Part shown: in pieces, positions 44,476 to 64,000 of the stretch | How positions within the stretch are numbered: the stretch's first letter is position 1 | Layout of the letters: every line of letters starts with the position of its first letter | From: Candidatus Methanomethylicia archaeon | GTDB lineage: Archaea > Thermoproteota > Methanomethylicia > Culexarchaeales > Culexarchaeaceae | Direction of reading: 5' to 3' | DNA: 64,000 nt | Assembly (NCBI GenBank): GCA_038727515.1 | Contig: JAVYVS010000001.1 | Coordinates: forward strand, 602,946 to 666,945 | Program-made: the position numbers and the translations under genes | The notes under the pieces: generated by a model | The model's database searches: none | Seen by the model: the letters and a program-made list of their open reading frames with translations, nothing else | Told to the model about the DNA's origin: nothing

Positions 44476-44757
44476 TTATTTCCTCGTCAAAGTTATTTCT
44501 ATTGCTGATACAGTTCTCGCTTGATCGCCTTCTCCAACACGCTCAGAACCTATTGAAATATTTTTAACATCCACTTGTCCACTGAGAAATCTAGTTTTAA
44601 CTATTTGCGCCACATCAACAGCTTTACTTATAGCTTTGCCACGAGCCTTTATGACGACTTCATCTGCACCTTGATTAAATTGAACTAGAGCTGCTAAAAC
44701 ATAGTTCATAACGGTTTTCTTACCCACTAAAATAACATTACTCTGTCGAGAAGCCAT
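44476..44757 (-). CDS. albA: DNA/RNA-binding protein Alba
   Basis: Near-identical block to Sso10b-type Alba: SNVILVGKKTVMNYVLAALVQFNQGADEVVIKARGKAISKAVDVAQIV; ORF extends to 44778 but MASRQSN start at 44757 matches Alba length. Confidence 0.9.
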   Translation of the reverse strand: MASRQSNVILVGKKTVMNYVLAALVQFNQGADEVVIKARGKAISKAVDVAQIVKTRFLSGQVDVKNISIGSERVGEGDQARTVSAIEITLTRK

Positions 44758-44819
44758 AGAATCCCTCCAGAAATCCATTAGAAACTCTTTAAATAGAAGA
44801 GAAGAAGCTTATTTAAATT

Positions 44820-45173
44820 TTACTCAAAAATTGATTTCTCCATATCCCTAATAAATTTCCTAGCTTTCTCAAATAGCATAAATCCCTTATCTGTAACCCT
44901 ATAATAAGTGGTTTCACCCTCACTAAATTTTTCAATTAATCCTTCTCTAACCATCTTATATATAACTGCGTAAACGGTTATTGTAGAAGGATTAAAATGA
45001 AATTTTTCAGAAATAGCCTTCTTAACTGCATATCCATATAATGGTTTTGAACGTAAAACACTAATAACATAAAGCCATAAATTTTCTTTAGTTAATTTCC
45101 TAACAAGCCTTTCAAAAGCCAAAAAGACACCTAATGAACTTATAATATTTATAGATAAAAATATTTTATGCAA
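44820..45173 (-). CDS. PadR-family winged-helix transcriptional regulator
   Basis: 117 aa; PadR-like LWLYVISVLRSKPLYGYAVKKAI...TVYAVIYKMVREGLI. Confidence 0.55.
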   Translation of the reverse strand: MHKIFLSINIISSLGVFLAFERLVRKLTKENLWLYVISVLRSKPLYGYAVKKAISEKFHFNPSTITVYAVIYKMVREGLIEKFSEGETTYYRVTDKGFMLFEKARKFIRDMEKSIFE

Positions 45174-45219
45174 AACATTTTAGAATTTAAGAGTGTAAAA
45201 GATATTTGAAGGTGAAAAA

Positions 45220-45732
45220 TTGAGTGAAGAAGATAGGGAAAAATTAAAGGCTTTGATAAAGGAGAAGATAGACCAATTAAATAAGGAAATAGAAGTACTT
45301 AAAATGTGTCTAGAAATCATAAGTGAAAAATCAGTAGCAACACAAAAGAAAGCAATGGAAACAACGATAGAAGCAAAAATTCCACCTCCACAACCACAAA
45401 AAATTGAAACCACCGAAAGAAAACTTTTATCAAGTATAAATGAGGGGAAAGAAAACATTGCAAACATATATGTTGAAAAAGAAAAAATAATAATAGTTCC
45501 CGGAAGAAATGTAGAAGTAGATATAAATTCAAGAGATTTTAAAGATTTCTTCATTAAAAAGGTTTTATTGGGGTTGAAGAAGGAGAAGGCAGCAGTAACA
45601 TATGAAGTTAAAGATTCAAATGGAATACTTAAGGAAGTTATAATTAGAAATGTATCTGAGGAGAAGGATATAAGAAGGATAGAGGGAGCAGTAAAATGGA
45701 CTTTTAGTAGATTTCTAAAAACTAAGCCTTAA
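45220..45732 (+). CDS. hypothetical coiled-coil protein, paralog family member A
   Basis: 170 aa; N-terminal heptad region, conserved C-terminal block AVTYEVKDSNGILKEVIIRNV...AVKWTFSRF; paralog of 60228..60815. Confidence 0.35.
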   Translation: MSEEDREKLKALIKEKIDQLNKEIEVLKMCLEIISEKSVATQKKAMETTIEAKIPPPQPQKIETTERKLLSSINEGKENIANIYVEKEKIIIVPGRNVEVDINSRDFKDFFIKKVLLGLKKEKAAVTYEVKDSNGILKEVIIRNVSEEKDIRRIEGAVKWTFSRFLKTKP

Positions 45733-46288
45733 ACCAATTGAGGGAAATATATGTAATACTATTATCATCTGGGTTTATCATAGCTATAATAAATTTCTTC
45801 TTAACACTATGAGACAATCTACCAGCACGAACTATATGTATTGGATCGAGTTTCTCATTAACTGGCAAAACTTCAACTAGAAAAGGCGCATGATCAATTC
45901 CTGGACCATGTTTATAAACAGCAAAATCAGCTCCAAATTTCATACCAGGCCTAACTACAAAGCCTTTATTCCTTAAATCACAATAAACTAGATATAATTC
46001 ATTGAAAAGCTTATGTCTACTCTTAGCAATAGATAAAACTTCATCTCTACTTAAAACTCTACCACCATCAACAACTAAAATAACACCTTTATCCAATAAA
46101 TATAAAGCTTCTATAGGTGATAAAACCAATGGAGAATTAAAATTTAGATCTTTAGGCTTCCTAGCTTTTATTGGCATACCATAAAATCCATTAGCATACA
46201 ATTTCCTACTACAATCAAAATCCCAAACTACAAAGTTTCCTCCAACCCATTCAACCATTATTGATTTATCCATATCAACCACAACCAA
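45722..46288 (-). CDS. endA: tRNA-splicing endonuclease catalytic subunit EndA
   Basis: 188 aa; catalytic-domain signature YLVYCDLRNKGFVVRPGMKFGADFAVYKHGPGIDHAPFLVEV. Confidence 0.8.
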   Translation of the reverse strand: MVVVDMDKSIMVEWVGGNFVVWDFDCSRKLYANGFYGMPIKARKPKDLNFNSPLVLSPIEALYLLDKGVILVVDGGRVLSRDEVLSIAKSRHKLFNELYLVYCDLRNKGFVVRPGMKFGADFAVYKHGPGIDHAPFLVEVLPVNEKLDPIHIVRAGRLSHSVKKKFIIAMINPDDNSITYISLNWFKA

Positions 46289-46349: not shown

Positions 46350-47417
46350 ATGTCATACAAGATAAAGATACGGAAAAGTACAATTATAATTGCAGCATCT
46401 TATGGGGTAGGATTAGCAATAATATTTATGTTAATCAATTATATTGGATTGAATAAAGTTTTTGAAAATATAATGAGTAGAATGGTTTACCAATTATTCA
46501 TAGCAACATTCATACTTGACATTGCTGGATTGTTAATATACGCATTAATATGGTATTTACTTTTAATTGGAGTAGGATCAAAAGTGAAATTCATGACTTC
46601 AATAACATCAACTTGGGCTAGCATATTTATAATGTATCTAAGTCCCACAGGTGTAGTACTGGAATTATTGAAACTCGTCTTAACTAATAAGGAGGGGAAA
46701 GTACCCATTGGGAGGGGGATTGCAGCATTAACAATGCAAAGAATAATATATTCCATTAGTTTCATATCCATAGCAATATCAAGCTACATAGTGGTTCAAT
46801 ATAGATATATGGTTATAGGGGAAGCCATTGGTAGAATAATAGCGGCTTTAATAATAATAGCCTTAATCACAGCAATAGCCTTAATAATTGTAGGGAGAAG
46901 AACGGAGAAATTAGAAATGATAATATTTAGGATATATGAAAAATATCAAAATAGAATTGAGAAAATGATATCAAAATACAATCCAACGGAAGTAATAAAC
47001 TCAATATCATCAACAATAAATGAATTTAAAAATTCATTTAAGTCATTATGCTCTAAGAAGACTATACTTATAACAACCTTTATATTAACAACGATAAATT
47101 GGATGTTAAATGTAATGATATTATACGTTGTTCTACTATCACTTGGATATAAAGTTTCAATATGGATCTTAATGTTAATAATGGTATTATGTGAATTCGT
47201 ACAAATGACCCCAATAATTATACCTGGAATGCTTGGAATAATAGAAACAGTAATGACAGCAACATTACAAATCTTTGGAATACCACTAGAAATATCAGGT
47301 ACAGCTTCAATACTAACTAGATTGGCAACCTTCTGGTTCGATATACCAATAACAGCTATTGCAGCATCATATTATGGAATAAAATACCTATTAAAAGGAG
47401 TAATTAAAGAAGATTAA
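46350..47417 (+). CDS. UPF0104/LPG-synthase-TM-like (flippase-like) membrane protein
   Basis: 355 aa, about 8 TM helices, Lys-rich cytoplasmic loop in the middle; topology reminiscent of UPF0104. Confidence 0.35.
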   Translation: MSYKIKIRKSTIIIAASYGVGLAIIFMLINYIGLNKVFENIMSRMVYQLFIATFILDIAGLLIYALIWYLLLIGVGSKVKFMTSITSTWASIFIMYLSPTGVVLELLKLVLTNKEGKVPIGRGIAALTMQRIIYSISFISIAISSYIVVQYRYMVIGEAIGRIIAALIIIALITAIALIIVGRRTEKLEMIIFRIYEKYQNRIEKMISKYNPTEVINSISSTINEFKNSFKSLCSKKTILITTFILTTINWMLNVMILYVVLLSLGYKVSIWILMLIMVLCEFVQMTPIIIPGMLGIIETVMTATLQIFGIPLEISGTASILTRLATFWFDIPITAIAASYYGIKYLLKGVIKED

Positions 47418-47421
47418 CTTT

Positions 47422-49023
47422 TTAACTAGAATCCAATACAATACCACTTAAAGCTCTATCTGAAACAACCCTTACAATCTTAACTTTAGCAATTTTACCC
47501 ACAAATTTTGAAGCAACCTTTGAATTTTCAATAAATATTACAGGTCCATGAATAAATGGATATCCAATAAAACCTTTACCTCTAAGAGAATTAACTATAT
47601 ATGCATCTAAAACAGCTCCAATCCATTTATCCTTCAATTTAGAATTTATTCTTGAAGCTTTATCAACAATTATCTTACCAACAGCATCAACATGACTTGG
47701 GGGAGCTTTAGGAAAATCTGAGAAAGCAGACATCGGAAGTGGAGAAAACCTATATACAGTTATCTTTTCAGCTCCAGCTTTAACAGCTTCATCCATAACC
47801 TTTGAAGTTTCAATAGCAATATTAACGTCTTGATTTGGTAGTCCATGAATAAAGTATGCATATGGAATTAAACCATACTTCCTTAAGAGTCTAATAGCTT
47901 TAATAGCTTGACTAGGAGTTGAAGGTCTACCAAGGGATATGGCATAAGAATCTACTCCAGTTTCAACACCAATACTAGTTGGAGTACCACGTAAATATCT
48001 ACCTAAAACTTTTGCTACTTCTTCATCTACAAGTGAAGGTTTAACATTTTCTATGGAGAAGAAAATTTTTAAGCTAAATTCACTCTCTAAGCTTTTAATA
48101 CTTCCAAGAAGCTTCTCAATTTCATTAAGATTTGGTGGAGGATTTAATGGGTCTGTTAAAGGTTCAGGTTCCACTAGAATATCTCTCCCATAATCTAAGA
48201 AATCTGAAGCTCCCAAGATAAATCGTCTACAACCCATTTCAATTAAACCTTTAATTTCATTTACAATAGATTCTACAGATCTACTCCTAGATGGGCCGAA
48301 AAGGCTTGGAACAGAACAATATCCACAACCAGGTGGAATATTCATTGGGCAATAGTATCTATCGCTTAAAGAACTACTATAACATTTTCCACAATCATTA
48401 CATTTACGTCCATCTGGAAGCATAATTTTAGTTCTAAGAAAATTACTACAACCTCTAACAACTTCAACATAAATTCTACAAGCATAATAACTCCAATAAT
48501 TCCTAACAACTTTAACAGATGGTTTAAATGAATCAAGTTCAAATCTAGACATAAACGGTCTAAGATCATTAACCTTCACATTGGAATCTATACGATAAGC
48601 TAACCCCTTAACATCTTTGATAGATTCTATATCTTCAAAATCAAATTTATTGAAAAATTCTACAAGAGATTTTTCAGCTTCACCAATAAATGCAATATCA
48701 AAACCAGCTTTAACTAAAGCTTCATAAGGATCAGAAGTCAATGGACCTCCAATAATACTCAATCCACCATTAAACTTATCCCATAACCTCTTAATCCTAC
48801 GAGCCATGGGAAGATCAACACTCATAGCACTAACCATTAATACATCAAAATCTTTAAAGATAGAAGTATTTGAAAGAACACTATAATATGGTTTTAAATC
48901 ATAATCAAAACCAAGTTTCTCCAAGACTCCAGCAATAGTTCTCGGCCCACAACCAATAACATCTAACGTCGCATATCTACCAACACTCCCAGAACCAAGA
49001 ACATCAACAATTAAAATTTTCAT
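47422..49023 (-). CDS. B12-binding-like domain / radical SAM protein with Cys-rich insertion
   Basis: 533 aa; N-terminal Rossmann-like MKILIVDVLGSGSVG; radical SAM core with VRGCSNF ... [about 35-aa insert CNDCGKC...YYC] ... PPGCGYCSVPSLFG. Confidence 0.55.
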   Translation of the reverse strand: MKILIVDVLGSGSVGRYATLDVIGCGPRTIAGVLEKLGFDYDLKPYYSVLSNTSIFKDFDVLMVSAMSVDLPMARRIKRLWDKFNGGLSIIGGPLTSDPYEALVKAGFDIAFIGEAEKSLVEFFNKFDFEDIESIKDVKGLAYRIDSNVKVNDLRPFMSRFELDSFKPSVKVVRNYWSYYACRIYVEVVRGCSNFLRTKIMLPDGRKCNDCGKCYSSSLSDRYYCPMNIPPGCGYCSVPSLFGPSRSRSVESIVNEIKGLIEMGCRRFILGASDFLDYGRDILVEPEPLTDPLNPPPNLNEIEKLLGSIKSLESEFSLKIFFSIENVKPSLVDEEVAKVLGRYLRGTPTSIGVETGVDSYAISLGRPSTPSQAIKAIRLLRKYGLIPYAYFIHGLPNQDVNIAIETSKVMDEAVKAGAEKITVYRFSPLPMSAFSDFPKAPPSHVDAVGKIIVDKASRINSKLKDKWIGAVLDAYIVNSLRGKGFIGYPFIHGPVIFIENSKVASKFVGKIAKVKIVRVVSDRALSGIVLDSS

Positions 49024-58759: not shown

Positions 58760-59968
58760 ATGAATGAAAAAATAGTTAAAGTACATAAGAAAATAGCCGA
58801 GAAAATACTAAATTATGGAAGTAGTTACTGGGATGATTGCACAATATATACATCTAAATATGAAGATTCACATATAATACCTGAATTATTAGCAATAAGT
58901 ATAGCAGAAGAAATTGAGGGAACGGTAATTTTAGATACAAGTAGATTGCAAAAAGAGGTAATATTGGAATTCCTAGAAAATTTTGATAAAAAGCCATCAA
59001 TATTTGAATTCAATACTAATAGCGTACCAATACCAGATGCATACAAAATTAAAATTGGAATTGAGAATATTAGAGAGAATGCAAAATTGTTCTCAAAAAT
59101 TATGACTACATATAATGGTAATAGTGAAGTGGAAGAAGAAATAGAAGAAGAAGTCATGTGTCTAGATAATGTAAATGAGCTAAGTAATATAATCATAATG
59201 AGCTACATGCCCCCAAAAATACGTGAAAAAATGAAATTGGAATTAAAAGAATATGTAAAGAAGAGGGGAAAAATGGAGCTAATTATGAATATAGCTGGAA
59301 TAATAGGTGGATTAATGGTGAACCCCATGATGGTAGCCCCAAAAGGAATAGCCATATTACAAGAAACAATAAAGAATATTGGTAGAAAGGATCTTAGCAT
59401 AAATGAAATAGTCGAATGGGCTAAACCAGAAATATTAAGTGAAATTGTAGAAGAAGGTGAAGGAACATTTAAAGAATTAAAACCAAAAGAGTTTAATATA
59501 ATATTCTGTGATTTAAAACATAAAATACACAAACCATTCCAACTATTACTAGTATGGAGTTTAATAAATTCCATTGAGGGAAAAATAGTATTAAGCAATG
59601 CAAATGAAATAACAAAAATAGAATACCTAAGGGAAATTATCAAAATAAAATCTAAAGAGAAAGGATTGAAAATAGTGTACATATTTCAAGGAGAAGAAGA
59701 ATTTAATGGATGGCTTGGAGATAAAAACGTAATATTTAATATAAAAACATCAGATTTAATGAAGATAATTAAGAATGAAGATTTAATGCATATTGCACAA
59801 ATAATACATAACTTCTCAGAAAATAAATGCGTAAACCAATATGATAAAATAAGATTTATAATAAAGTATATGGATGGACCATGGAAATTGATGGAAGTAA
59901 ATATAAATGATGGATGGAAAGACTTCGTAAAAAATATGTTTATTAAATTAATGGAAATAGCTGCATAA
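58760..59968 (+). CDS. hypothetical protein
   Basis: 402 aa, soluble, acidic stretch EEEIEEEV; no family recognised. Confidence 0.3.
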   Translation: MNEKIVKVHKKIAEKILNYGSSYWDDCTIYTSKYEDSHIIPELLAISIAEEIEGTVILDTSRLQKEVILEFLENFDKKPSIFEFNTNSVPIPDAYKIKIGIENIRENAKLFSKIMTTYNGNSEVEEEIEEEVMCLDNVNELSNIIIMSYMPPKIREKMKLELKEYVKKRGKMELIMNIAGIIGGLMVNPMMVAPKGIAILQETIKNIGRKDLSINEIVEWAKPEILSEIVEEGEGTFKELKPKEFNIIFCDLKHKIHKPFQLLLVWSLINSIEGKIVLSNANEITKIEYLREIIKIKSKEKGLKIVYIFQGEEEFNGWLGDKNVIFNIKTSDLMKIIKNEDLMHIAQIIHNFSENKCVNQYDKIRFIIKYMDGPWKLMEVNINDGWKDFVKNMFIKLMEIAA

Positions 59969-60016: not shown

Positions 60017-60244
60017 ATGCCCAAGATCATTATCAATGAAAAGTACTGTAAAGGATGTGAAATATGCGTAGAAATATGCCCGAAACATGTATTTGAAATG
60101 TCTAAAGAACTGAGTGAAAGAGGTTATCACATACCAAAACCCATTAGACAAAAAGAATGCATAGTTTGTCATCAATGTGAATTATACTGTCCAGATCAAG
60201 CAATAGTAGTATTAGAGGACGATACTCATGAACATGGAAAGTAA
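60017..60244 (+). CDS. 2x[4Fe-4S] ferredoxin (oxidoreductase delta-subunit-like)
   Basis: 75 aa; CKGCEICVEICP and CIVCHQCELYCP cluster motifs. Confidence 0.8.
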   Translation: MPKIIINEKYCKGCEICVEICPKHVFEMSKELSERGYHIPKPIRQKECIVCHQCELYCPDQAIVVLEDDTHEHGK

Positions 60245-60815
60245 AGAACTAGAGAAATTGGCTGAAGCAAAAAAGATATTGACACAAAGACTTGAAGAAT
60301 TAGAAATAGAAATAAGAATGATAAGAGAATGCATAAAGATATTAGATGAAGAATTGCTGAAAAAGAGTTTCATATCAGCTGAAAAATTAATTGAATCAAG
60401 GGAAAAGGAGGTTATTAAAGAGGTTGCATCATATGAAAAGGAATATGCAAAAATAACGTATAGAGATGTTAGTGGAGAAAAAAGTATTGCAAAGATATAT
60501 ATTGATGAAAAGATGAAGAGAATGAAAATAAAAATAGAAGAAGAAATACCGGCAGAAGCATCATTAATAAAAAACTTCTTAATAAGTGGAGTACTGGAGA
60601 AGATGAAGCTAGAAGATGAAGAAAGAGTAGATAAAGGAGAAATAAAACCTGATGAAGCTCTAACATACACTTTGAAAACAGATGGAAACAAATTGAAAGA
60701 GATAATAATAGATAATATTGATAAAGAAGAGAGAAGGGTTAGAGTGAGAAATGCAGCTAAATGGGCTTTCACAAGATTATATGAAAGTATTAGGAGTGGA
60801 GGTTCTGATGAATAA
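60228..60815 (+). CDS. hypothetical coiled-coil protein, paralog family member B
   Basis: 195 aa; paralog of 45220..45732 (EALTYTLKTDGNKLKEIIIDNI...AAKWAFTRL); start overlaps ferredoxin stop by 17 nt. Confidence 0.35.
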   Translation: MNMESKELEKLAEAKKILTQRLEELEIEIRMIRECIKILDEELLKKSFISAEKLIESREKEVIKEVASYEKEYAKITYRDVSGEKSIAKIYIDEKMKRMKIKIEEEIPAEASLIKNFLISGVLEKMKLEDEERVDKGEIKPDEALTYTLKTDGNKLKEIIIDNIDKEERRVRVRNAAKWAFTRLYESIRSGGSDE

Positions 60816-61830
60816 AGAAATATATGAAACAATATTTAACATGCCAAATCTAATGGAGAAGGCATTAATGGAATTAAATTTGAATGGTGATATTAAATAT
60901 AACATAAATAAAGTTGCGTTTTTTGGAATGGGAGGTTCAGGTATAGCTGGAAGAATAATTTCTGAATGGGTAATTGAAAATGGAAAATTACAGATTTCAG
61001 CATATAACGATATGAAAATCCCCAGAAAAATAGATAAGGAGACATTGATAGTTTCAATAAGTTATTCAGGGAATACTGAAGAAACAATAATGGTAGCAGA
61101 AAATGCTTTAAGAGAAAATTATCCTTCTGCAATAATATCCAGTAATGGTAAACTAATTGAAATAGCAGAGAAAAACAATATACCATATGTTAAAATACCT
61201 CAAATATTTAATCAACCAAGAGAAGCATTACCATACCTTTTCATAGCTGCAATAAAGGTTTTAATGGAAATCAATTTCATAAACTCTAAACATATAAAGC
61301 AAATACATGAAACCATAAAAACATTATACAATTTAAGAGAAGAATTATCATTAGATAATGTACCAAGGAAAATTGCAGAGAAAATACATAATAAATTCAT
61401 CTCAATATATACATATGATCCATTAACAGTATCAGCAATAAGATTTAAACAATCATTAAATGAAAACAGTAAAGCCATAGCAAAAGTTGAAGTAATACCT
61501 GAAGCTGGACATAATGCAATAATGGAACTTGAAGAAGACACTAAAATTCTAGGAAAAATGATTATGATATTGATTAGAGAAGAAGATATTGCAAATAGAT
61601 TAATTGAGAAATCAATAGAAACATTTAAGGAATTAGCTGTAAAACGGGAAATGGAATTAGAAGAAATTGTGGTTAAAGGAGGATCAACATTAAGTAAAAT
61701 ATTTTCAGCAATATATCTTGGAGATTTAACCTCTGTGGAATTGGCAAATATCAAGATGATAGATGCTAGGAAAATTGACTCGATAAAATACTTAAAGAGT
61801 AAAATACGTGAATTATATTTACATACATAA
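60808..61830 (+). CDS. bifunctional phosphoglucose/phosphomannose isomerase (archaeal SIS-domain PGI/PMI)
   Basis: SIS-domain motif FFGMGGSGIAGRII; ORF opens at 60751 but ATG at 60808 (MNKEIYETIF) has a GGAGGT SD 6 nt upstream. Confidence 0.7.
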   Translation: MNKEIYETIFNMPNLMEKALMELNLNGDIKYNINKVAFFGMGGSGIAGRIISEWVIENGKLQISAYNDMKIPRKIDKETLIVSISYSGNTEETIMVAENALRENYPSAIISSNGKLIEIAEKNNIPYVKIPQIFNQPREALPYLFIAAIKVLMEINFINSKHIKQIHETIKTLYNLREELSLDNVPRKIAEKIHNKFISIYTYDPLTVSAIRFKQSLNENSKAIAKVEVIPEAGHNAIMELEEDTKILGKMIMILIREEDIANRLIEKSIETFKELAVKREMELEEIVVKGGSTLSKIFSAIYLGDLTSVELANIKMIDARKIDSIKYLKSKIRELYLHT

Positions 61831-62908: not shown

Positions 62909-62965
62909 ATCTTAAACTAAACATTTAACTTTTTATTTTCATAACATATAATAGTTGAGGATACT

Positions 62966-64000
62966 ATGCTATATAGTGAAATTGTGGATATTTATGAGAA
63001 AATAGAAGCAACAACTAAAAGACTTGAAATGACTGATTTACTTGTAAATTTACTAAAGAAGACTCCGAAGGAAGTTATTGATAAAGTTGTATATTTAACT
63101 CAAGGTAAATTGTATCCAGATTATTATGGAATTGAATTGGGATTAGCGGAAAAACTTGCTTTAAGAGCATTATCGGAAGCTAGTGGAATGAGTGTAAATG
63201 AATTAGAAGATAAATTGAATGAAACTGGAGATATAGGTTTAGTGGCAGAATACTCATTACAAAAGAGGAAGATTAAAACATTAACAGAATTTGTAGCACC
63301 AGCAAAAAAGACTCAATTAACGGTTTCAGAAGTATATAATGTATTGGATGAAATTGCAAAGATAACTGGTGAAGGATCTCAAGATAGGAAGATAAGACTT
63401 TTAGCTGGAATACTTAAGAAGGCAACTCCAAAGGAAGGCAAATATATTATGAGGACAGTAACAGGTAGACTTAGACTAGGAATAGCTGATATGACAATAC
63501 TAGATGCACTTGCAATAACCTTTACACAATCTAAAGAAGCTAGAGCAAGAATAGAAAAAGCATATAACATATCAAATGACTTAGGTGAAGTTGCAAGAAA
63601 ACTTTCTGAAAAAGGAATTAAGGGTATTGAAGAAATAAAGATTTTAATTGGAAGACCAATAAGACCTATGCTAGCTGAAAGATTATCAAAAGCAAAAGAA
63701 ATAATTGAAAAATTAAATGGAGAATTAGCTGCAGAATATAAGTATGATGGAGAGAGGATACAAGCACATAAAGATGGAGAAAAAGTAATATTGTTTTCAA
63801 GGAGAAGTGAAAATATAACACACCACTACCCCGATGTATGTGAACTTATAAAGAATAATATAAAAGCTAAACAAGCAATTGTAGAAGGAGAAGTTGTAGC
63901 AGTAAACATACAAACAGGAGAATTCCTACCATTCCAAGAACTTATGCATAGAAGGAGGAAATATGGAATTGAAGAAGCTATGGAGAAATATCCAGTGACA
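62966..64000 (+). CDS. lig: ATP-dependent DNA ligase (5' portion; truncated by window end)
   Basis: Open frame from ATG 62966 to window end; N-terminal DNA-binding domain typical of archaeal Lig and adenylation motif AAEYKYDGERIQAH (KxDGxR). Confidence 0.85.
   Translation, partial: MLYSEIVDIYEKIEATTKRLEMTDLLVNLLKKTPKEVIDKVVYLTQGKLYPDYYGIELGLAEKLALRALSEASGMSVNELEDKLNETGDIGLVAEYSLQKRKIKTLTEFVAPAKKTQLTVSEVYNVLDEIAKITGEGSQDRKIRLLAGILKKATPKEGKYIMRTVTGRLRLGIADMTILDALAITFTQSKEARARIEKAYNISNDLGEVARKLSEKGIKGIEEIKILIGRPIRPMLAERLSKAKEIIEKLNGELAAEYKYDGERIQAHKDGEKVILFSRRSENITHHYPDVCELIKNNIKAKQAIVEGEVVAVNIQTGEFLPFQELMHRRRKYGIEEAMEKYPVT

Follow-up and report, generated by a model that had tools for sequence, protein, structure and literature searches.

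A pair of paralogous genes in a Methanomethylicia archaeon and a predicted Thermoproteota family of small coiled-coil proteins

Two paralogous genes and their surroundings

We analyzed a 64,000-nucleotide stretch of a Candidatus Methanomethylicia archaeon genome (contig JAVYVS010000001.1, forward-strand positions 602,946 to 666,945), referred to here as the window. The window is AT-rich, with a GC content of 31.8%. An earlier sequence-only reading proposed that two small open reading frames in it encode diverged paralogs, and both are present in the ORF list and the sequence with the coordinates and lengths it gave. Copy 1 (45220..45732, plus strand) encodes a 170-aa protein from a TTG start codon, and a Shine-Dalgarno-like site (GGTGA, 45211-45215, plus strand) lies four bases ahead of the TTG. 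Copy 2 (60228..60815, plus strand) encodes a 195-aa protein from an ATG start codon and is an ancestral-type member of the family. ORFs also run opposite both copies, at 45180..45554 (minus strand, 124 aa) and 60212..60832 (minus strand, 206 aa). Their translations, of low complexity, abound in Ser, Phe, Ile and Leu. Most likely neither ORF is a gene, both being shadow ORFs of a purine-rich coding strand.

The two proteins are homologous along their whole length, as had been claimed. BLASTP aligned residues 10-168 of copy 1 with residues 15-187 of copy 2 at 24% identity (E=5e-11). The C-terminal domains alone gave E=2e-10 and the N-terminal helices alone gave E=0.003. The similarity is therefore not confined to low-complexity coiled coil; most of the signal comes from the globular C-terminal domain, and an explanation by coiled coil alone fails. 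When the six-frame translation of the window was searched with an HMM built only from Bathyarchaeia sequences, both ORFs were matched (3.6e-31 and 2.6e-17) and no third family member was found.

Both genes have positional orthologs in other genomes. Orthologs of copy 1 are 58-99% identical and sit between Alba/PadR and endA, a setting that is also found in remoter genomes at 35-37% identity. Orthologs of copy 2 are 61-100% identical. The closest protein matches to both copies come from YNP-LCB metagenome-assembled genomes (MAGs) and from MAGs labelled 'Methanomethylicia archaeon', and by these matches the window belongs to a relative of Ca. Culexarchaeia (PMC9723716). In comparison with Ca. 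Culexarchaeum yellowstonense, dN/dS was about 0.13 for copy 1 and about 0.19 for copy 2, values that are only rough because dS is close to saturation. Purifying selection acts on both genes, and both ORFs encode real, conserved paralogous proteins.

Copy 1 is flanked by the same genes in the window and in Ca. Culexarchaeum yellowstonense: an aminotransferase, Alba and PadR on one side, and endA, an LPG-synthase-like gene and a B12/radical SAM gene on the other. The PadR-family regulator (44820..45173, minus strand; Pfam PadR, E=9e-11) is transcribed divergently from copy 1, and Alba (44476..44778, minus strand) lies just past it. This divergent arrangement, with Alba beyond, is kept at loci L085 and L094, and PadR may regulate copy 1. 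The listed TTG start of PadR (117 aa) may lie too far upstream, since its ortholog in L085 has 100 aa. On the other side, endA (45722..46288, minus strand; Pfam tRNA_int_endo) overlaps copy 1 convergently by 11 nt, exactly as the sequence-only reading had stated. A 533-aa B12-binding radical SAM protein (47422..49023, minus strand) adjoins an LPG_synthase_TM membrane protein (46350..47417, plus strand). Both genes are found next to endA at every copy-1 locus examined, and they may form a lipid-modification pair.

The genes around copy 2 are different ones, which bears out the earlier description of the two contexts as unrelated. Copy 2 has the same setting in the window and in Ca. Culexarchaeum yellowstonense. 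In the latter it consists of a transglutaminase-like gene, a nitroreductase gene, an unannotated 408-aa gene and a ferredoxin gene upstream, and of PGI, GAPDH, DNA ligase and an XPB-like helicase downstream. In the window, a 2x[4Fe-4S] ferredoxin of 75 aa (60017..60244, plus strand; Pfam Fer4) overlaps the start of copy 2 with its last 17 nt. The pairing holds in Culexarchaeia-like lineages: in each of four divergent genomes (the window, L086, L087 and L089), a ferredoxin gene for 65-75 aa runs into the start of the copy-2-type gene or ends right at it. The gene caller had missed the ferredoxin gene in L086 and L087. Further upstream in the window, a 402-aa ORF (58760..59968, plus strand) matched nothing in Pfam and gave just a weak match in PHROGs. 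Its counterpart in L086 has 408 aa and the same position, and an unannotated 447-aa gene lies roughly there in L087. This ORF looks like a second uncharacterized conserved family in the copy 2 block.

The phosphoglucose/phosphomannose isomerase (PGI) ORF downstream of copy 2 is listed at 60751..61830 (plus strand). Its true start is probably 60808, since a GGAGG at 60799-60803, inside the 3' end of copy 2, precedes an ATG there and the overlap in L086 is 4 nt. A start at 60808 would overlap copy 2 by 8 nt, so that ferredoxin, copy 2 and PGI would be tightly coupled in translation. An ATP-dependent DNA ligase gene (62945..64000, plus strand), cut by the end of the window, begins 2.1 kb beyond copy 2, in the same orientation, and was matched by an HMM of the Bathyarchaeia ligase cluster at E=1.7e-148.

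Family breadth, conserved features and duplication history

We built a profile (A1) from the groups of both copies and searched it against a 90%-clustered protein database and against representatives at 50% identity. It matched 913 proteins at E<=0.1 in the clustered database. Among the representatives, which were searched exhaustively, it matched 429 clusters at E<=1e-3 and 308 at E<=1e-10. In GTDB species genomes, a pattern scan located the family in 369 stretches. Nearly all members have 175-245 aa (typically about 190) and match end to end, and the longer ones differ solely by linkers rich in Ala, Pro and Gln. The labelled members carry the name 'hypothetical protein' and come from Bathyarchaeia, from Methanomethylicia including Methanosuratincola (243 aa), from Nitrososphaeraceae (227 aa) and from MAGs labelled 'Thermoprotei'. 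Judged by these searches, the family is large and widespread in Thermoproteota and not specific to one lineage. The term 'lineage-expanded family' used in the sequence-only reading thus fits only in part. The family is broad and the window holds just two copies of it, but one old duplication is lineage-specific.

Conservation was tabulated for 85 diverse members, which gave 31 columns conserved at 70% or more. No His or Cys occurs among these columns, a lack that speaks against an enzyme or metal site in the family. Conserved polar positions are D130, N163 and R169, which lie, as does W179, in the second half of the C-terminal domain. The N-terminal helix of members spans 5-6 heptads, and 62% of members have a Lys at an 'a' position. 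We infer that this conserved lysine is more typical of dimers. Between the helix and the C-terminal domain lies a linker of 0-73 residues (median 18), and the pI of the C-terminal domain ranges across the family from 4.6 to 9.9.

The N-terminal heptad helix and the shared C-terminal domain described in the sequence-only reading were both recovered by BLASTP, the heptad scan and AF2 modeling. In copy 2, the heptad scan placed the coiled-coil segment at residues 8-46 (60249..60365, plus strand), with L8, K15, L22, I29, I36 and L43 at the a positions and L11, L18, L25, I32 and L39 at the d positions. The a and d positions are 83% hydrophobic, compared with 29% at the other positions. The helix ends in an LxxxSFxxA motif (L43, S47, F48, A51; 60354..60380, plus strand), which column conservation revealed to be family-wide and whose F48 is present in 94% of diverse members. 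The C-terminal alpha/beta domain (residues 70-189; 60435..60794, plus strand) is predicted to have a five-stranded sheet and two helices. An AF2 model of residues 38-195 (pTM 0.73) gave this domain pLDDT values of 88-98 and the same topology as copy 1; the SF motif region was undocked from the domain, with pLDDT below 50. The domain also carries an acidic 12-residue loop, LEDEERVDKGEI (residues 128-139; 60609..60644, plus strand), which stands out as a gap in the BLASTP alignment and contains, by the conservation table, D130 (99% conserved) and G137 (91% conserved).

Copy 1 has the same general plan. Its full-length AF2 model, computed with the family alignment, had a pLDDT of 82.5 and a helix at residues 3-47 that is confident to about residue 37. 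The amphipathic heptad portion (residues 3-37; 45226..45330, plus strand; pLDDT 88-95) has an a/d core of I13, I17, L20, I24, L27, L31 and I34 in the heptad scan. Residues 38-64 (45331..45411, plus strand) form a low-confidence linker (pLDDT below 50) that is probably disordered. The C-terminal alpha/beta domain (residues 65-166; 45412..45717, plus strand), delimited by AF2 (pLDDT 92-96) and by BLASTP against copy 2, is modeled as strand-strand-strand-helix-strand-strand-helix, with confident structure at residues 68-165.

Several conserved features are missing from copy 1. It lacks LxxxSFxxA at the end of the helix; the linker stands where the family has this motif, and the motif columns are not conserved there. 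The 12-residue loop with D130 and G137 is deleted, and R169 (94% conserved) is replaced by D. Core residues including F117, L123, N163 and W179 (copy 2 numbering) are retained. Copy 1 keeps 14 of the 31 conserved columns and copy 2 keeps 19. The losses of copy 1 are common to all 16 copy-1-type sequences, and the loop deletion is also found in two remoter proteins, P0236 and P0253. The C-terminal domain of copy 1 is basic (pI about 9.5), as it is in every copy-1-type sequence (16/16, pI 9.3-9.7), whereas copy 2 is acidic.

The distribution of these features points to a single old duplication. Where checked, the family otherwise appears to be single-copy, including in Bathyarchaeia. Second copies in two Bathyarchaeia MAGs were considered as paralogs and rejected. 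They are 84-96% identical, and the one pair that was compared has identical neighbors; this identity and shared context indicate strain mixtures in the bins. Copy 2 is the ancestral ortholog, judged by its neighborhood, which Methanosuratincola and other divergent lineages also have. The shared block consists of a transglutaminase-like gene, a nitroreductase gene, the family gene and DNA ligase, with AMMECR1, Mut7-C and CBS genes nearby. Copy 2 also grouped with Methanomethylicia sequences in a neighbor-joining tree. Copy 1, by the same comparisons, is a diverged paralog restricted to Culexarchaeia and close relatives. P0236 and P0253 match copy 1 at 35-37% identity, have undergone the same losses and occupy the same position between Alba and endA. 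P0236 shares a 95-kb contig with P0124, a copy-2-type protein (40% identical to copy 2), at a distance of 15.7 kb. These positions, losses and linkage show that the duplication is old and that the pair has been kept as a pair. The spacing of about 15 kb given in the sequence-only reading agrees with the 14.5 kb that we find in the window and the 14.6 kb in Ca. Culexarchaeum yellowstonense, where both loci are conserved.

Comparison with known families and folds

The sequence-only reading had assigned the pair no known function or family, and neither protein found a match in the libraries we searched. Against Pfam and NCBIfam, the best E-values for the two window proteins were at least 0.006, with scores far below the cut-offs. 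A search with 87 diverse members against the same two libraries returned only scattered coiled-coil noise, with at most three members matching any one family. PHROGs gave no match for the family. No PDB chain matched copy 1 or copy 2 by sequence at E<=10, and the family profile matched only coiled coils in the PDB (E at least 0.2). A Foldseek search of a viral structure library gave no match at E<=0.001, and a literature search turned up no account of the family.

Among natural structures, the C-terminal domain was matched best by pterin-4a-carbinolamine dehydratase (PCD/DCoH, PDB 2ebb). As modeled, the domain shares with it an antiparallel sheet with two helices packed on one side, and 72-78 residues could be superposed at 2.5-2.8 A. 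The proposal that the domain is a divergent PCD/DCoH enzyme domain is nearly refuted. PCD/DCoH has conserved catalytic histidines, and no His occurs in the 31 columns conserved at 70% or more. On this evidence, the C-terminal domain is best described as a predicted generic two-layer alpha/beta sandwich of the DCoH-like class, without a demonstrable relative.

The arrangement of parts, as distinct from the fold, recalls SepF. SepF likewise has an N-terminal helix, a variable flexible linker and a small C-terminal alpha/beta domain, and the suggested parallel lies in dimerization and partner binding by that C-terminal domain. By analogy, the family could act as a cytoskeletal or cell-division adaptor, anchoring an FtsZ-like filament or one of another kind. 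Such a role would suit the three-part layout and the variable linker, and the division machinery of Culexarchaeia is partly unaccounted for: these archaea have neither CdvA nor CdvB, and their FtsZ-like protein is unusual (PMC9723716). The helix of SepF is a short membrane-targeting one, unlike the 40-residue charged heptad zipper found here, and we found neither a sequence match to SepF (Pfam PF04472) nor a listed structural match. We regard a division role as very unlikely.

Four other candidates were considered and set aside. Arcadin-2 is set apart by its phyletic pattern alone, since our family is present where crenactin and arcadin-2 are absent. Family members occur in Methanosuratincola and in MAGs of YNP Culexarchaeia. 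Crenactin and arcadin-2 are reported to be missing from terrestrial Culexarchaeia and crenactin from most Methanomethylicia, in which an arCOG survey found no arcadins (PMC9723716). Subunit E of A/V-type ATPases was rejected in the absence of a Pfam vATP-synt_E match and of any ATPase subunit gene at the loci examined. YabA scored 17 bits against a cut-off of 130. The KEOPS subunits Pcc1 and Gon7 have no coiled coil, unlike our family, and their match scores were in the noise range; the family has no sequence match to them and no KEOPS gene context.

Recurrent neighbors and a dimeric adaptor model

We propose a model in which the members of this family work as dimeric adaptors. Two chains would be joined in parallel by a zipper of their heptad helices, and the two C-terminal domains, on flexible linkers, would act as non-catalytic protein-binding modules, giving a scaffold or adaptor. 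Likely contacts would be D130, N163, R169 and W179 of the C-terminal domain, plus the SF motif. Of these proposed functional elements, copy 1 retains the zipper, the fold, N163 and W179. Since it lacks D130 and R169, copy 1 could serve as a modulating subunit in a heterodimer with copy 2, or could form a homodimer of its own (neofunctionalized) with another partner. A reading of the charges at the e and g heptad positions showed no preference between homodimer and heterodimer. Taken jointly, a real Thermoproteota family, an origin of copy 1 by old duplication and a dimeric adaptor mechanism make up the explanation toward which we lean, by a modest degree.

Gene neighborhoods were compared for the best 80 of the 369 GTDB stretches, nearly all of them from Bathyarchaeia, and for loci of other lineages. 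No neighbor was universal across the family loci examined. Just one is met repeatedly in different classes, the gene for the ATP-dependent DNA ligase, which is adjacent or within about 3 kb in five arrangements. It is adjacent and co-directional in L090, adjacent and convergent in L091, one gene away in L081 and L089, two genes away in the window, L086 and L087, and upstream in the same orientation at 29 of the roughly 48 Bathyarchaeia loci whose flanking sequence is long enough. It was absent at three loci examined (a Nitrososphaeraceae locus, L088 and L092). The proximity could also be inherited gene order, because nitroreductase, AMMECR1, Mut7-C and NFACT are kept in the same blocks. Other genes lie equally near to family members, namely the ferredoxin gene in Culexarchaeia-like lineages and a gene for a 160-aa protein in Bathyarchaeia. 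Because the ligase is the sole neighbor recurring across classes, a part in DNA replication or repair exerted through the ligase is our leading functional guess, though a weak and rather improbable one.

A broader form of this idea makes the family a DNA- or chromatin-associated factor that binds nucleic acid or a replication/repair protein, for instance as a ligase scaffold, with copy 1 as a nucleoid-associated variant. The ligase proximity across classes speaks for it, as does the XPB/Rad25-like helicase gene that follows the ligase and overlaps its end in the orthologous loci L086 and L087. So do the uniformly basic C-terminal domains of copy 1 and all its orthologs, which are encoded beside Alba. 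Nucleic-acid binding by the whole family cannot be derived from charge, as the pI of the C-terminal domain spans the range given above and copy 2 is acidic. Further points against are that structure comparisons recovered no known nucleic-acid-binding fold, that neither the consensus nor the C-terminal tails contain a canonical PIP box (Qxx[LIVM]xx[FY][FY]), and that three loci lack the ligase. We consider such a factor doubtful.

The more specific form is unlikely. It holds that, in non-Thermoprotei Thermoproteota, members of the family would form hitherto unrecognized dimers that partner the replicative ATP-dependent DNA ligase or the replication and repair proteins around it, and that the basic paralog of Culexarchaeia would be a specialized or regulatory subunit. 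The analogy here is with XRCC4, XLF and PAXX, which, like our model of the family, are small dimers that combine a coiled coil with a globular domain. XRCC4 works with a DNA ligase, and a ligase gene is the recurrent neighbor of our family. In XRCC4-like scaffolds a beta-sandwich head at the N terminus precedes a coiled-coil stalk at the C terminus, a layout that the family does not have. XRCC4-type ligase scaffolds would be functional analogs, unrelated by descent.

Other neighbors suggest a redox connection, in which the family would be a partner or assembly factor for the upstream ferredoxin and for neighboring flavin or nitro reductases. The overlapping or abutting ferredoxin in four divergent genomes, the nitroreductase and flavin reductase genes upstream, and the DUF2148, thioredoxin-like and radical SAM genes downstream at Bathyarchaeia loci are consistent with it. 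However, the ferredoxin is absent beside the Bathyarchaeia, Methanosuratincola and Nitrososphaeraceae members at the loci examined, the family has no conserved Cys or His, and copy 1 has no redox neighbors. A redox accessory role is accordingly quite unlikely. We rate the redox, cell-division and enzyme proposals as less likely than a role in replication or repair through the ligase.

Bathyarchaeia have a further neighbor of their own. Directly upstream of the family gene, on the same strand and often at a gap of about 50-70 nt, lies a gene for a 160-aa protein in 61 of 79 loci, and in these the two genes are probably co-transcribed. An Lrp/AsnC regulator gene and a DUF5752 gene are transcribed divergently at Bathyarchaeia loci. 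Many Trp, Cys, His and Phe positions of the 160-aa protein are invariant. The protein had no Pfam match above the cut-off (best E 0.0093-0.027), no PHROGs match and a best PDB match at E=0.26. The window encodes no homolog of it, and its comparison with our family by hhalign gave a probability of 0.2%.

The paralogous pair is a solid but modest lead to a family that is described in none of the libraries searched. A preprint on metagenomic data puts the number of uncharacterized families reported there at 608,258 (bioRxiv 10.64898/2025.12.21.695754). Since such families are very common in metagenomic data, one more is unsurprising. This one, with hundreds of members and a confident predicted fold whose C-terminal domain has no close PDB neighbor, lends itself well to a new Pfam or DUF entry, and the degenerate copy 1 marks which residues of the family probably matter. 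If the partner were a DNA ligase or another replication or repair factor, the family would point to an archaeal ligase cofactor, and we know of no description of one of this kind. Bathyarchaeia, Methanomethylicia/Culexarchaeia and soil Nitrososphaeraceae are abundant and difficult to cultivate. Should the family prove to be a genuine scaffold, it would supply one more conserved part of their cell biology, which is still poorly understood.
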